Below are positions 1-28,071 of a stretch of 64,000 nucleotides of DNA, piece by piece; positions within the stretch are counted from its first letter, which is position 1, and each line of letters opens with the position of its first letter. The position numbers and the translations under genes were made by a program. The DNA is from Escherichia phage T5. Location: sequence record AY692264.1; one strand, given 5' to 3'. The notes under the pieces were generated by a model that searched no databases, had not been told where the DNA came from, and saw only the letters and a program-made list of their open reading frames with translations.

Positions 1-29
1 GGGATTTCTCCTCATCAATTTATATAAAT

Positions 30-58
30 ATTATAACAAGAAATTAAGCATTAAGCAA
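30..58 (-). promoter_or_regulatory. sigma70-type promoter (leftward)
   Basis: Reverse complement TTGCTT-17-TATAAT. Confidence 0.5.
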
Positions 59-24912: not shown

Positions 24913-25221
24913 ATGAGCGAACAGGTAAATCAAAACTATGAAGGACACGTTGATGACCAGTCCATCATACTTTGGGAGAAGGAGGGGGAACAAGTAAGAT
25001 TAACAGTATCTGAATTTCGTGGGAATCTATACATGGGTATTCGTTACTGGCTTCTTGATATTAATGATGAATGGTTTCCAACGAAATCTGGCTTCTCTTT
25101 TCCTTACACCCTAGAAACAACATCACAGCTTTTCTATGCGTTTACACAGATTCTTAGCGAATCTGAGGTTTTACATGAAGTACAGAAACGAGCTGAAGAA
25201 CTCAAAGCCAAGAATGCCTAG
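24913..25221 (+). CDS. PC4-like ssDNA-binding protein
   Basis: EFRGNLYMGIRYW...PTKSGFSF matches the PC4/YdbC C-terminal domain pattern. Confidence 0.6.
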   Translation: MSEQVNQNYEGHVDDQSIILWEKEGEQVRLTVSEFRGNLYMGIRYWLLDINDEWFPTKSGFSFPYTLETTSQLFYAFTQILSESEVLHEVQKRAEELKAKNA

Positions 25222-25248
25222 TTCTTGGCTTTTTCTTTATAAATGTAT

Positions 25249-25277
25249 TTGCTTTCAACTCAGTTTTGTTATATAAT
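25249..25277 (+). promoter_or_regulatory. sigma70-type promoter for ligase N-fragment
   Basis: TTGCTT-17-TATAAT. Confidence 0.6.
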
Positions 25278-25308
25278 ATTTATATAAATTAATGAGAGAT
25301 ATAAATAA

Positions 25309-26280
25309 ATGACTAATGTAAAAGAATTTATTAAACGCTGTCAAGAAGCATATTATCAAGGCATGTCTTTAATCTCTGATGAAGAATATGATCGCCTGGT
25401 AAAACGCTTCCCGTTAGAGGAAGAGATCGGGCCTAAGGGTGATATTCCACATCTATATCGTATGTATTCTTTACAGAAAGTTTACTATAACCGTGGTGAT
25501 AAACCACCATTCAATCCTTTAGGTCAGGTGGAAACCGATAAGTTAGATGGTTGTGCAATTTCTCTGCTATATATTAACGGCGAATTTGTTCAAGCATTAA
25601 CCCGCGGTAATGGTATTCTGGGGAATGATGTCACAAGCAACGTAAGATTGCTGAACATTCCTAAAAAGATTTCCCAAAAAGTACCTACTCAAATCACTGG
25701 TGAAGTTCTAATTACAAAAGAAGTAGAAAATAAACGTAACTTTGCCTCTGGTGCTATTAACCTCAAAGATAGCGATGATTTCGTACAACGTATCGGGGAA
25801 GGTGGTTTAATCTTCGTTGCATACGGTATCCAGTGTTCTGCTGAATCTGTAGGTATTACAGAAGCATATTTAAAAGATATGCTTTGGCTAGAGAATGAGA
25901 ACTTCTTAACAGTTGTTAATGTGCGTTCCTTCTTTAAATGGATTCCGACGGACGGTAAAGTTGTTCGTATTAATGACAACAACAAATTCTTCCGTGAAGG
26001 CTGGACTAATAAATTCCCTCGTGGAGCATTCGCTATTAAAGAGGATGAAGAAGGCGAGATTACAACTCTTACTAAAGTTGAATGGCAGGTAGGGGCTTCG
26101 GGTAAAGTAACTCCAGTTGGTTATTTTGAACCGGTAATTATTGATGATGCTACAATTGTTAAAGCAACTCTTAATAACGTTGATTATATTAACTCTCTCG
26201 ATCTAGAGATCGGTTGCCAGATTCGAGTGATTCGTGCTGGTGGTGTAATCCCGTGCATAGTAGAGCGAGTATACGATTAA
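25309..26280 (+). CDS. ligA: NAD-dependent DNA ligase, N-terminal adenylation fragment
   Basis: 323 aa; KLDG adenylation motif; stops before the Zn-finger/HhH region, which is encoded by the next ORF. Confidence 0.85.
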   Translation: MTNVKEFIKRCQEAYYQGMSLISDEEYDRLVKRFPLEEEIGPKGDIPHLYRMYSLQKVYYNRGDKPPFNPLGQVETDKLDGCAISLLYINGEFVQALTRGNGILGNDVTSNVRLLNIPKKISQKVPTQITGEVLITKEVENKRNFASGAINLKDSDDFVQRIGEGGLIFVAYGIQCSAESVGITEAYLKDMLWLENENFLTVVNVRSFFKWIPTDGKVVRINDNNKFFREGWTNKFPRGAFAIKEDEEGEITTLTKVEWQVGASGKVTPVGYFEPVIIDDATIVKATLNNVDYINSLDLEIGCQIRVIRAGGVIPCIVERVYD

Positions 26281-26330
26281 TACATAACCCTTTGCTACCC
26301 ATCTACCATATCGGAATTATAAAGTGGTTA

Positions 26331-26359
26331 TTGACATTTTCGCCGCTTAGGTATATACT
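26331..26359 (+). promoter_or_regulatory. sigma70-type promoter inside ligase spacer
   Basis: TTGACA-17-TATACT; followed by an 8-codon mini-ORF with GAGGGA RBS. Confidence 0.5.
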
Positions 26360-26423
26360 ATTATCATTCAGTTGAGGGATAGAAAGTTATGGCGAGGGTA
26401 AGCAAAGTTAGTTAAAATTGTAG

Positions 26424-26452
26424 TTGCTAAATGCTTAAATACTTGCTATAAT
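26424..26452 (+). promoter_or_regulatory. sigma70-type promoter for ligase C-fragment
   Basis: TTGCTA-17-TATAAT. Confidence 0.6.
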
Positions 26453-26479
26453 ATTTATATAAATTGATAAGGAAGAAAT

Positions 26480-27262
26480 TTGATGAAAATCGAAATTCCA
26501 ACACAATGTCCCTCTTGTGGTTCTAAGCTAGATCTTGTCAACGGACAATTATTCTGTCGTAATAAGTCCAACTGTCCAGCGCAATCAAGTAAGTTAATTG
26601 AGAACTTCTGTACAAAAATGAAGTTAAAGGGCTTTGGCCCGAAAACTATTGAGAAGCTGGAGCTGACGAAGATTTCAGAACTATTTTACCTAACCGAAGA
26701 AGATTTGGTTAGAGCCGTGGGTAGCAAGGTTGCCGCTAAGTTAATTAGCGAATTAAATACTAAAGTTCGCGGAGACATTGACTTTGGTTCAGTTCTCGGT
26801 TCTTTAGGAATCCCTCTAATTGGAGAGGTTGCAGCAAAGAAATTATCCCAAAATTGCACTAGCTTTCAAGATGTGAAGGCTGACGGCAAGGCTGGAGAAA
26901 ACTATAAAGCCTGGCTAAATTCCCCACAAGGCAAGGATGTAATCGAATTACCGTGGAAATTCTCAAAGGGTATTAAGGGTGCTAAAGCTGAGGTCATCAT
27001 CACTGATGGTCTAGTAGCCCAGCCAAATGGAATCACGGTGTGTATTACCGGATCTTTGCAAGATTTTGCAAATCGAACGGATGCAACAAACTATTTAGAA
27101 GGTCTAGGATATACGGTTAAGAAATCCGTTACCAAAGACGTCAAATACCTAATCTGTGAGGATGAATCGAAGCGTTCTTCCTCATCTTATAAGAAAGCCG
27201 AAACGAATGGGATAGAAATCCTGTCGATTAAAGAACTATTGGAGAAAAATAATAATGTCTAA
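26480..27262 (+). CDS. ligB: NAD-dependent DNA ligase, C-terminal fragment
   Basis: 260 aa; Cys4 zinc finger CPSCGS...CRNKSNCPAQ, then HhH/BRCT-like region. Confidence 0.8.
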   Translation: MMKIEIPTQCPSCGSKLDLVNGQLFCRNKSNCPAQSSKLIENFCTKMKLKGFGPKTIEKLELTKISELFYLTEEDLVRAVGSKVAAKLISELNTKVRGDIDFGSVLGSLGIPLIGEVAAKKLSQNCTSFQDVKADGKAGENYKAWLNSPQGKDVIELPWKFSKGIKGAKAEVIITDGLVAQPNGITVCITGSLQDFANRTDATNYLEGLGYTVKKSVTKDVKYLICEDESKRSSSSYKKAETNGIEILSIKELLEKNNNV

Positions 27263-28022
27263 ACTGAACTGGAACGTAGAAGGTGTAACCGAGTCTCTGA
27301 AAGCAAAAGCCACTGCTCTGGGTGTTGATGTAATCTCTCAAGAACAAGTAGCTGCTATCGCTGCTGAACTGGCTGCTGAAACTGGCAAAGACGTTACCGC
27401 TCGCTCTGTTGGCTCTAAGCTGCGTAAAGAAGGTTTCGAAGTACAGAAAGCTAACGAAGTACAGAAATCCCCGTGGACTCCTGAGCAGGAAGCTGAACTG
27501 GTTGATTTCCTGAACGCTCATGCTGGTCAGTATACTTATGCTGAAATCGCTGCTGCTGTAGCTGGTGGTCAATTTGGTGCTAAGCAGGTACAGGGTAAGA
27601 TCCTGAGTCTGGAAATGACAGCATCTGTTAAGCCGACCGAAAAAGCTGCCGCTGTTCGTTCCTTCACTCCGGATGAAGAAACTGACTTTGTTAATCAGGT
27701 TGTTGCTGGTGCTACTATTGAAGCTATCGCTGCTCACTTCGGTCGCAATATTAAGCAGATCCGTGGTAAAGCTCTGAGTCTGCTTCGTGAAGGTCGTATC
27801 GCGGCTATGCCGGTACAGGAAACTTCAAGTGCTAAAACTCGTGAAGATCTGCTAGAAGGTCTGGATCTGGTTAACATGACCGTTGCTGAGATCGCTGAGA
27901 AAACTGGTAAGTCTGAGCGTGGTGTTAAATCTATGCTGTCTCGTCGTGGTCTGGTTGCTAAGGACTATGATGGTGCCGCTAAGCGTGCTAAACTGGATGC
28001 AAAAGCTGCGGCTGCTGAATAA
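27255..28022 (+). CDS. putative DNA-binding protein with three internal repeats
   Basis: 255 aa; three copies of a ~60-aa module ending ..RSVGSKLRKEG / ..IRGKALSLLREG / ..GVKSMLSRRG. Confidence 0.6.
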   Translation: MSKLNWNVEGVTESLKAKATALGVDVISQEQVAAIAAELAAETGKDVTARSVGSKLRKEGFEVQKANEVQKSPWTPEQEAELVDFLNAHAGQYTYAEIAAAVAGGQFGAKQVQGKILSLEMTASVKPTEKAAAVRSFTPDEETDFVNQVVAGATIEAIAAHFGRNIKQIRGKALSLLREGRIAAMPVQETSSAKTREDLLEGLDLVNMTVAEIAEKTGKSERGVKSMLSRRGLVAKDYDGAAKRAKLDAKAAAAE

Positions 28023-28039: not shown

Positions 28040-28071
28040 AAGGGGAGGGGGCTATGCTCCTTCCCCTTTTT
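28040..28071 (+). terminator. rho-independent terminator before helicase gene
   Basis: G-rich/C-rich hairpin AAGGGGAGGGGG...CTCCTTCCCC followed by TTTTT. Confidence 0.55.

Follow-up and report, generated by a model that had tools for sequence, protein, structure and literature searches.

The NAD-dependent DNA ligase of bacteriophage T5 is encoded by two open reading frames, ligA and ligB, which are separated by an intergenic region carrying promoter sequences. This arrangement raises the question of whether the split is genuine, and of whether the DNA between the two genes is a regulatory module or the trace of an element that has since been lost. We examined the locus in a stretch of 64,000 nucleotides of Escherichia phage T5 (AY692264.1), here called the window, whose numbering is used throughout. 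A first-pass annotation of this DNA had proposed two separately transcribed and translated ligase halves, two promoters and a mini-ORF in the spacer, and either a lost intron or homing element or a regulatory function as the explanation for that spacer. The 2.2 kb around the ligA/ligB junction are 100% identical to positions 65255-67455 of the Escherichia phage T5 record AY543070.1, and 515 more phage records match the same region. The annotation of AY543070.1 already holds ligA, ligB, an unnamed promoter before ligA, the promoters P-K28b and P-K28a in the spacer, and D5 directly downstream. The experimental status of these two promoters is something that we take from that annotation, and the original promoter paper for both is reportedly that of Gentz and Bujard from 1985. 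The split ligase itself was described by Wang et al. (2005) along with the T5 genome, as cited in PMC1684257, and both T5 ligase subunits are listed as a routine matter in other papers. Because the genes, the promoters and the split had all been annotated or published for T5, our finding is the rediscovery of a known feature: the two-gene NAD-dependent ligase of T5 and the P-K28 promoter pair in its gap are real, ordinary and already known. The core of the finding changes nothing in what is known, as these are textbook-level features of a model phage, for which a homologous two-chain structure has also been deposited. The additions that came from comparison with relatives, namely a clade-wide promoter at the split, an unusually conserved module, and occupancy of the junction by the gene of a homing endonuclease that is predicted to target T5 ligA, are modest and leave the classification unchanged. 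The features discussed below are collected in Table 1.

Table 1. Positions of features at the T5 ligA-ligB-D5 locus, in window coordinates.
Feature	Position	Strand	Basis
Terminator-like hairpin behind T5.115, closing the unit that precedes the ligA promoter; directly ahead of that promoter	25204..25232	+	12 pairs, then T run
ligA promoter, unnamed; -10 TATAAT 25272-25277, 31 nt before the ligA ATG	25229..25303	+	Annotated in AY543070.1
ligA, NAD-dependent DNA ligase half	25309..26280	+	Annotated ligA; Pfam PF01653, PF03120; PDB 9HU3_A match E 8e-104
Part of T5 ligA predicted to be recognised or cleaved by the GIY-YIG endonuclease of relatives	26083..26102	+	Start of diverged tract and W-A-T-G/W-Q-V-G recoding; inference only
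Variable 5' part of spacer, insertion site in relatives	26281..26315	+	Diversity 0.053 vs 0.004 in rest of spacer; junction alignments
Promoter P-K28b; -35 TTGACA 26331-26336, -10 TATACT 26354-26359	26311..26385	+	Named in AY543070.1; 11/12 consensus
8-codon ORF MARVSKVS in the P-K28b leader, probably non-functional	26389..26415	+	Sequence; GAGGGA upstream
Promoter P-K28a; -35 TTGCTA 26424-26429, TG-extended -10 TATAAT 26447-26452	26404..26478	+	Named in AY543070.1; 10/12
ligB ribosome-binding site AAGGAAG	26469-26475	+	
ligB, NAD-dependent DNA ligase subunit B (4-Cys Zn finger, HhH, BRCT), 259 aa	26483..27262	+	Pfam BRCT, HhH; 9HU3_B match E 4e-80
D5 DNA-binding protein gene, 8-nt overlap with the ligB end	27255..28022	+	Annotated
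Terminator-like hairpin closing the ligA-ligB-D5 unit	28040..28068	+	13 pairs, 8 G-C, then T run

LigA had been described as the adenylation half of the enzyme, which is correct but incomplete, in that domain Ia and the OB fold are present as well. Its nucleotidyltransferase (adenylation) domain matches PF01653 at E 2e-23, and the lysine of the KxDG motif is found in the T5 segment TDKLDG, aligned with HKVDG of 1V9P. For domain Ia, which determines NAD+ specificity, residues 14-30 of the T5 protein, AYYQGMSLISDEEYDRL, align with RYYVLADPEISDAEYDRL of 1V9P; the score of this segment on its own is weak, and the full LigA N-terminus can be aligned with 9HU3_A. The C-terminal OB fold is matched by PF03120 at E 3.8e-22 over residues 252-321 and aligns to residues 284-390 of 2OWO. 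As for LigB, its residues 3-251 align to residues 400-653 of 1DGS, the BRCT domain reaches 35.1 bits against PF00533 (E 1.6e-8, above the cut-off), the Pfam match of the HhH domain falls, at 25.2 bits, just under the cut-off of 27, and the Zn-finger cysteines C9, C12, C25 and C31 are invariant in the six genera compared. The two halves are indeed separate ORFs, with ligA at 323 aa as first described, while the 260 aa given for ligB have to be corrected to 259 aa, counted from an ATG at 26483. This ATG is almost certainly the ligB start, and the TTG at 26480 the wrong one, because the ATG and the AAGGAAG ahead of it are conserved in the sequences of relatives and the TTG is not. The spacer, correctly located but originally drawn as some 200 bp ending at 26479, extends from 26281 to 26482 (202 nt).

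The point at which the protein is divided can be read from single-chain LigA. Residue 320, at the C-terminus of T5 LigA, corresponds to residue 390 of E. coli LigA (2OWO), and residue 3 of LigB to residue 402; the cut therefore lies within the linker that joins the OB fold to the Zn finger, at approximately residues 393/400 of the E. coli protein, and only about six residues of single-chain LigA, all of them linker, are missing from the T5 pair. LigA (domain Ia, nucleotidyltransferase, OB fold) and LigB (Zn finger, HhH, BRCT) make up a genuine two-subunit enzyme, the chains of which are translated separately and would then assemble non-covalently. We infer this assembly for T5 from its homologue in phage PR1, both chains of which were deposited together in PDB entries 9HU3 and 9I5I. 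These entries, whose chains are named 'DNA ligase (NAD(+))' and 'DNA ligase subunit B', match T5 LigA at E 8e-104 and T5 LigB at E 4e-80, and the LigB of Providencia phages PR1 and PSTCR5 has the same sequence as their chain B (100% identity); a literature search for a paper describing the structure found none.

Could the split nevertheless be a sequencing frameshift or an assembly error in what is truly a single LigA gene? We see hardly any chance of this. The spacer has stop codons in all three frames, ligA and ligB lie in different frames, and with only those six or so linker residues missing, no corrected frameshift would restore one continuous ligase ORF; what lies between the genes is, in fact, 202 nt of non-coding promoter sequence, and ligA and ligB are each provided with a ribosome-binding site and a start codon. 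An artefact would also have to recur in environmental contigs and in 438 independent phage records, where the same two-gene architecture occurs, and be matched by a homologue that is present in the PDB as two chains. When the concatenated subunits were used as a tblastn query, the ligase was found in two pieces in every T5-like phage recovered, namely phages of Escherichia, Salmonella, Klebsiella, Serratia, Providencia, Proteus and Vibrio, and the only single-piece ligases, found in jumbo phages and in phage c-st, were less than 30% identical. We further assembled a comparative set of 118 loci from phage records and IMG/VR contigs, in which LigB identity ranges from 38 to 100%. Both genes are present in 117 of them; the split falls at the same OB-fold/Zn-finger linker every time, and a fused ligA-ligB was seen in none of these 117. 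By these comparisons the split is ancestral and universal in the T5-like clade. That the halves are separately translated, as had been proposed, is borne out both by a split that is fixed in all the relatives examined and by the homologous pair that forms a two-chain PDB entry. The ligase locus of the T5-like phages is, in this respect, a concrete system in which to ask why a multidomain enzyme stays split.

Both promoters that had been picked out in the spacer are present, TTGACA-17-TATACT at 26331-26359 (11 of 12 matching positions) and TTGCTA-17-TATAAT at 26424-26452 (10 of 12, with a TG extension), and each combines near-consensus hexamers and a spacing of 17 bp with an A/T-rich upstream region. 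In an alignment of P-K28b and P-K28a with P-N25, P-N26 and the ligA promoter, a 19-nt core, TATAATATTTATATAAATT, is exactly common to the ligA promoter and P-K28a. This -10-proximal/initial-transcribed motif has 11 matches with three mismatches or fewer in the window, against 0.16 expected, so that P-K28a, an exact match, is part of a repeated family of T5 early promoters of which P-K28b is a looser member. A generic promoter scan of the region gave no overall enrichment (5 sites, compared with 7.1 +/- 2.7 in shuffled sequences). Among relatives, a near-consensus sigma-70 promoter (at least 10/12) was found in 27 of the 33 unique diverged spacers, compared with 1.2 +/- 1.1, and never more than 5, in dinucleotide shuffles; the -10 hexamer in the diverged relatives is placed 24-32 nt before the ligB ATG, and a promoter equivalent to P-K28a can be followed upstream of ligB down to 38% LigB identity. 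On the basis of this count, and of the position of these promoters close to the ligB ATG, the proximal, P-K28a-type promoter is therefore as old as the split itself, and the T5-like clade as a whole, to protein identities as low as about 40%, has both the split and a promoter at that site. The upstream, P-K28b-type promoter is confined to the Escherichia/Salmonella, Klebsiella, Serratia, Providencia and L067 lineages, and is in our reading a second promoter that was added in the enterobacterial lineage.

Conservation of the spacer sequence points in the same direction. Both promoters keep their -35 and -10 hexamers in the Klebsiella, Serratia and Providencia phages, whose flanking sequences have diverged. 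Spacer lengths fall into three classes: environmental relatives have 53-137 bp, the enterobacterial genera 185-203 bp, and loci with extra genes 358-1374 bp. Nucleotide diversity, calculated over 28 unique close relatives, is 0.004 in the promoter module (26316-26482) and 0.053 in the first 35 nt of the spacer; in the flanking genes, second codon positions give 0.011-0.015 and third positions 0.094-0.164. Measured in this manner, the spacer is the most conserved stretch of the region among close relatives, and the enzyme genes on both sides evolve faster than its promoter module. Since both promoters are annotated and conserved, the suggestion that the spacer is a regulatory module holds.

How the cluster is transcribed is a separate matter, and here the earlier proposal that the two halves are separately transcribed needs qualification. 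A simple consensus scan detected no terminator-like hairpin between ligA and ligB (Rho-dependent or atypical termination being beyond the scope of such a scan), and for this reason the proposal is only half right: ligB does have promoters of its own, but ligA is not set apart from it, and transcription that starts at the ligA promoter probably continues into ligB and D5. A literature search for transcript mapping of T5 found no data. The linkage of ligB to D5 is tight, with a D5 homologue lying between -29 and +32 nt from the end of ligB in 117 of the 118 loci. Taken with the promoter count in the diverged spacers and the missing hairpin behind ligA, this linkage leads us to conclude that the spacer is an internal promoter module for ligB and D5. 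We therefore regard the region, with considerable confidence, as the ligA-ligB-D5 early cluster of T5, encoding a two-subunit ligase and carrying an internal tandem-promoter module in its spacer. In the arrangement that we propose, P-K28b and P-K28a would act as two tandem sigma-70 early promoters within the 202 bp, and the transcripts from each would cover ligB and the overlapping D5 and end at the hairpin behind D5. As ligA has a promoter of its own and no terminator-like hairpin follows it, ligB and D5 would be served by three promoters and ligA by one, and expression of ligB and D5 might then be higher than that of ligA and semi-independent of it.

Two further functions could be imagined for the leader that lies between P-K28b and ligB. 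The eight-codon ORF MARVSKVS noted there is present (26389-26415), with a Shine-Dalgarno-like GAGGGA before its ATG, and it might encode a functional leader peptide or act as a regulatory upstream ORF controlling ligB translation; its ATG stands at a canonical 29 nt from the -10 hexamer of P-K28b, and the segment is nearly invariant in close relatives. We consider such a role very improbable nonetheless. The start codon is replaced by TTG in Klebsiella phages (where four codons are left), by ACG in PSTCR5 and by ATT in Serratia phage Slocum, all of which lose the ATG and the frame yet retain both promoters, and Providencia phage PR1 has an unrelated 9-codon peptide in the same place. The variants seen among close relatives are exclusively non-synonymous (AGT to AAT or ATT at 26411), and the conservation of the segment is explained by its overlap with the initial transcribed region of P-K28b and the A/T-rich region upstream of P-K28a. 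As a gene, then, the mini-ORF is rejected owing to the loss of its ATG and frame in these phages, and it is probably an incidental reading frame. The distance of its ATG from a -10 hexamer resembles that of ligA (31 nt) and ligB (30 nt), which gives P-K28b the look of a promoter-RBS-ATG cassette with no gene behind it, a likeness to which we attach little weight. The same leader might instead fold into a hairpin, at 26368-26467, whose 3' arm spans P-K28a and which would serve as an element for the processing or stability of transcripts that read through or start at P-K28b. In T5 the predicted fold is striking (-32 kcal/mol, z = -4.67 against shuffles), and the spacers of the Klebsiella (z -1.84) and Serratia (z -2.48) phages are predicted to form hairpins like it, but the leaders of Providencia phages and L067 are predicted to fold differently, RNAalifold returned no consensus structure for the leaders, and an alignment of five genera showed no covariation, with 62.3% of cells paired compared to 62.5% in shuffles. 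Rfam offers no match either. With a notable z-score in T5 alone and neither a common fold nor covariation, a conserved RNA hairpin was demoted to a weak alternative, one that we find quite unlikely though less so than a leader peptide, and the tandem-promoter module is still the reading that we prefer.

The possibility that the spacer is what remains of a lost intron or homing element deserves a longer discussion. With respect to introns and inteins, the answer is negative: a scan of 25100-26700 against Rfam with E up to 1 produced no match apart from two chance ones, by which a known RNA family or a group I/II intron at the junction is ruled out, a Pfam search found no intein Hint domain there, and the LigA end and LigB start meet at the OB/Zn linker without any extra residues. 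With respect to mobile genes, the junction turns out to be a reused insertion site in relatives of T5, where a homing endonuclease gene is found as well as other cargo. Between ligA and ligB of Salmonella phages SP3 and vB_Sen_SG_WM_RUS_R2 (R2) sits a 213-aa GIY-YIG ORF, which starts in an ATGA overlap with the ligA stop; the SP3 ORF matches PF01541 at E 1e-5 and 26.1 bits, above the gathering cut-off of 22.6, and precomputed PF01541 matches for P0001 and P0002 agree. Its codon differences (39 synonymous versus 20 non-synonymous) indicate that the ORF is under purifying selection. An exhaustive HMMER search with it returned only nine relatives, the closest of which (56% identity) also occupies the ligA/ligB junction, in a Klebsiella-phage-type contig (L121). 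Altogether, its occurrence is sporadic, the carriers being 3 of the 438 phage records and one Klebsiella-type contig, and the gene is always at this junction; it is absent from the junction of T5. Other inserts are a 64-aa ORF in 11 Salmonella and Escherichia phage records, two or three genes in Vibrio phages, among them the DprA-like phrog_768 and phrog_7775, a radical SAM gene in one environmental contig and a crAss001_48-like gene in another. None of the inserts of Vibrio phages and environmental contigs, some of which resemble nothing known, is a homing endonuclease, and the site is empty in 422 of 438 close relatives.

Wherever the GIY-YIG gene is present, the adjoining 3' tract of ligA, about 195 nt in length, has diverged in a co-conversion-like manner. 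In SP3 and R2 this tract is 70% and 76% identical to T5, compared with 96-99% in the rest of the gene, and it begins sharply at nt 778 of ligA (26086 in the window); in L121 it is 64% identical to the Klebsiella relative, compared with 83% elsewhere. SP3/R2 and L121 do not share one common ligA 3' allele, as their tracts are 68-71% identical to each other and have only a short recoded motif at the left edge in common, which reads W-A-T-G in all three endonuclease-bearing alleles and W-Q-V-G in all five endonuclease-free ones. Such a combination of tract and occupancy is the expected pattern for a free-standing homing endonuclease with a target some 195 nt upstream of its own gene, and the comparison yields a prediction of the target site (Table 1) for an endonuclease that is so far uncharacterised.

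Might T5, then, carry a relic of such a gene? The first 40 nt or so of its spacer (26284-26322) could be the scar of a lost free-standing GIY-YIG gene, and, more broadly, an insertion of this kind could have split the ligase or kept it split. This segment of T5 is collinear with the right end of the GIY-YIG cassette, with homology to its 3' end and right flank: T5 has ACATAACCCTTT, to which AGATAACCCTTT of L121 corresponds, its TAA being the stop codon of the endonuclease, and the T5 sequence from 26287 to 26322 reads ...PSTISEL*, in the same frame as the tail of the SP3/R2 ORF and identical to it. The endonuclease-free Klebsiella spacer is devoid of this right-end segment of the cassette. The exact placement of the ORF at the junction in SP3, R2 and the Klebsiella-phage-type contig, its purifying selection and the diverged ligA tract beside every occupied allele agree with such a history too. 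The same pattern would arise, however, if the cassette had entered an ancestral empty spacer with its ORF running on into spacer sequence, and the PSTISEL tail is not intrinsic to the endonuclease family, as P0002 and P0003 end before it; the data fit a cassette gained by a spacer that was already present, and they also fit one deleted from an ancestor that carried it. An unrelated 64-aa ORF, moreover, enters the same shared sequence in a different frame, the short spacers of environmental relatives hold only a promoter, the other inserted genes are all something other than endonucleases, and most close relatives have an empty site. A scar in T5 is hence possible, yet we are inclined to doubt it. 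We are similarly hesitant about a fuller scenario in which the junction is an ancient and persistent landing site for mobile and accessory genes, among them a SegF-like GIY-YIG gene targeting the 3' end of ligA, the 5' segment of the T5 spacer is a cassette relic, and the ligase was cut at the OB/Zn linker by a cassette bearing a promoter or an endonuclease, the split then being retained because it puts ligB under the strong promoter that serves D5. The split is universal with or without an endonuclease, so that a causal link between the two would be hypothetical, and the internal tandem-promoter module remains our interpretation of the spacer.

Compared with known systems, the locus is, first of all, the ligA/ligB pair of T5 (T5.116/T5.117) with its early promoters P-K28b and P-K28a, from which it differs in nothing. 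Set beside single-chain LigA, such as that of E. coli (2OWO) or Thermus filiformis (1DGS/1V9P), the T5 pair has all the domains in the same order, together with the four cysteines of the Zn finger and the motifs of domain Ia and KxDG, but, unlike in those enzymes, the polypeptide is broken between the OB fold and the Zn finger by an intergenic region that bears promoters. The LigA-LigB complex of Providencia phages vB_PreS_PR1 and PSTCR5 (9HU3, 9I5I) has the same domain split, gene order and two-promoter spacer as T5, and differs in a protein identity of only 52-55% and, in the case of PSTCR5, in lacking the mini-ORF. Among cases of genes in pieces that arose through free-standing homing endonucleases, the nrdA of Aeromonas phage Aeh1 is said to be split by the endonuclease gene mobE, and SegF of phage T4 reportedly acts on gene 56. 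The GIY-YIG gene of SP3, R2 and L121 resembles these cases in lying exactly between the halves of a split enzyme, in overlapping the upstream stop codon with its start and in adjoining a diverged tract of about 195 nt, whereas T5 and more than 95% of its relatives have no endonuclease gene at the site. What the comparison adds to the known T5 system is the universality of the split, the age of the proximal promoter and the identity of the genes that occupy the spacer in relatives.

A free-standing GIY-YIG endonuclease gene lies exactly at the junction between ligA and ligB, the two genes of the split NAD-dependent ligase, in three T5-like genomes from two genus-level lineages, namely Salmonella phage SP3, phage R2 and a Logan contig, and in all three of these carriers it adjoins a diverged tract at the 3' end of ligA. 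A target for this endonuclease in T5 ligA is predicted (see table). The same junction is also occupied by a 64-aa ORF with no assigned family in 11 phage records, among them Escherichia phage TrudiRoth; as with the GIY-YIG gene, its start codon and the ligA stop codon overlap in an ATGA, but no diverged ligA tract is found next to it. Further loci, including those of Vibrio and related phages, carry a mixed cargo in the ligA-ligB spacer, encoding a phrog_768 "DprA-like" protein of 186 aa, a phrog_7775 protein, a radical SAM protein (PF04055) of 334 aa, a crAss001_48-like protein, and several more without an assigned family.

Location of features in T5 (window) and in the ligA/ligB loci of its relatives (L-numbers, own coordinates)
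Feature	Location	Strand	Source
GIY-YIG endonuclease gene	L027 3965-4606		Salmonella phage SP3
GIY-YIG endonuclease gene	L120 1301-1942		phage R2
GIY-YIG endonuclease gene	L121 2501-3124		Logan contig SRR21291484_249
Predicted GIY-YIG target in ligA	window, about 26083-26102		T5
64-aa junction ORF	L002 1841-2035		Escherichia phage TrudiRoth
Junction cargo	L035 2469-3687		Vibrio and related phages
Junction cargo	L036 2469-3427		Vibrio and related phages
Junction cargo	L070/L073/L074		Vibrio and related phages
Junction cargo	L083 spacer; L075/L076 spacer		
ligB in two ORFs	L004 1765-2545		Salmonella phage GSW6
T5.115 (102 aa), upstream of ligA	window 24913-25221		T5
T5.115-ligA interval	window, about 25222-25308		T5
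Interval with additional small ORFs	L002 393-884		
Interval with additional small ORFs	L003 409-876		
Interval with additional small ORFs	L005 892-1273		
Exact TATAATATTTATATAAATT copy	window 17-35	-	T5
Exact TATAATATTTATATAAATT copy	window 25272-25290	+	T5
Exact TATAATATTTATATAAATT copy	window 26447-26465	+	T5
P-K28b leader	window 26366-26500		T5
ligB/D5 overlap	window 27255-27262		T5

At the other end of ligB, the gene overlaps the start codon of D5, the DNA-binding protein gene that follows it, by 8 nt, and a close spacing of -29 to +32 nt is kept in 117 of 118 loci, which together suggest that the two genes are translationally coupled.

The ligB annotation of Salmonella phage GSW6 (NC_111398.1) comprises two ORFs, giving an apparent threefold ligase, because one T is inserted relative to T5; this insertion is either a sequencing error or the mark of a pseudogene. 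The entries labelled "Listeria phage LM 4-11-1" (OR847284.1, OR847187.1), as well as Campylobacter-labelled matches, are short and 99.5-100% identical to T5 ligA/ligB, and are probably contaminants or mislabelled.

Upstream of ligA, many relatives carry one or two additional small ORFs (approximately 60-95 aa) after the T5.115 homologue, while the T5 interval holds the ligA promoter only, without these ORFs. T5.115 itself is annotated as a transcriptional co-activator in relatives, and its L121 homologue gives a weak match to PC4 (PF02229).

Within the T5 spacer, the leader transcribed from P-K28b, one of its two annotated promoters, is predicted to fold with unusual stability (-32 kcal/mol, z = -4.67), and in the modeled structure the -10 region of the second promoter, P-K28a, would pair with the start of the 8-codon mini-ORF (MARVSKVS); a cross-genus comparison yielded no covariation support for this structure. 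The 19-nt promoter core TATAATATTTATATAAATT is present in three exact copies in the window, and if up to 3 mismatches are allowed, 11 matches are found there against 0.16 expected. The repeats define a family of T5 early promoters with a common -10 hexamer and a common initial transcribed sequence.
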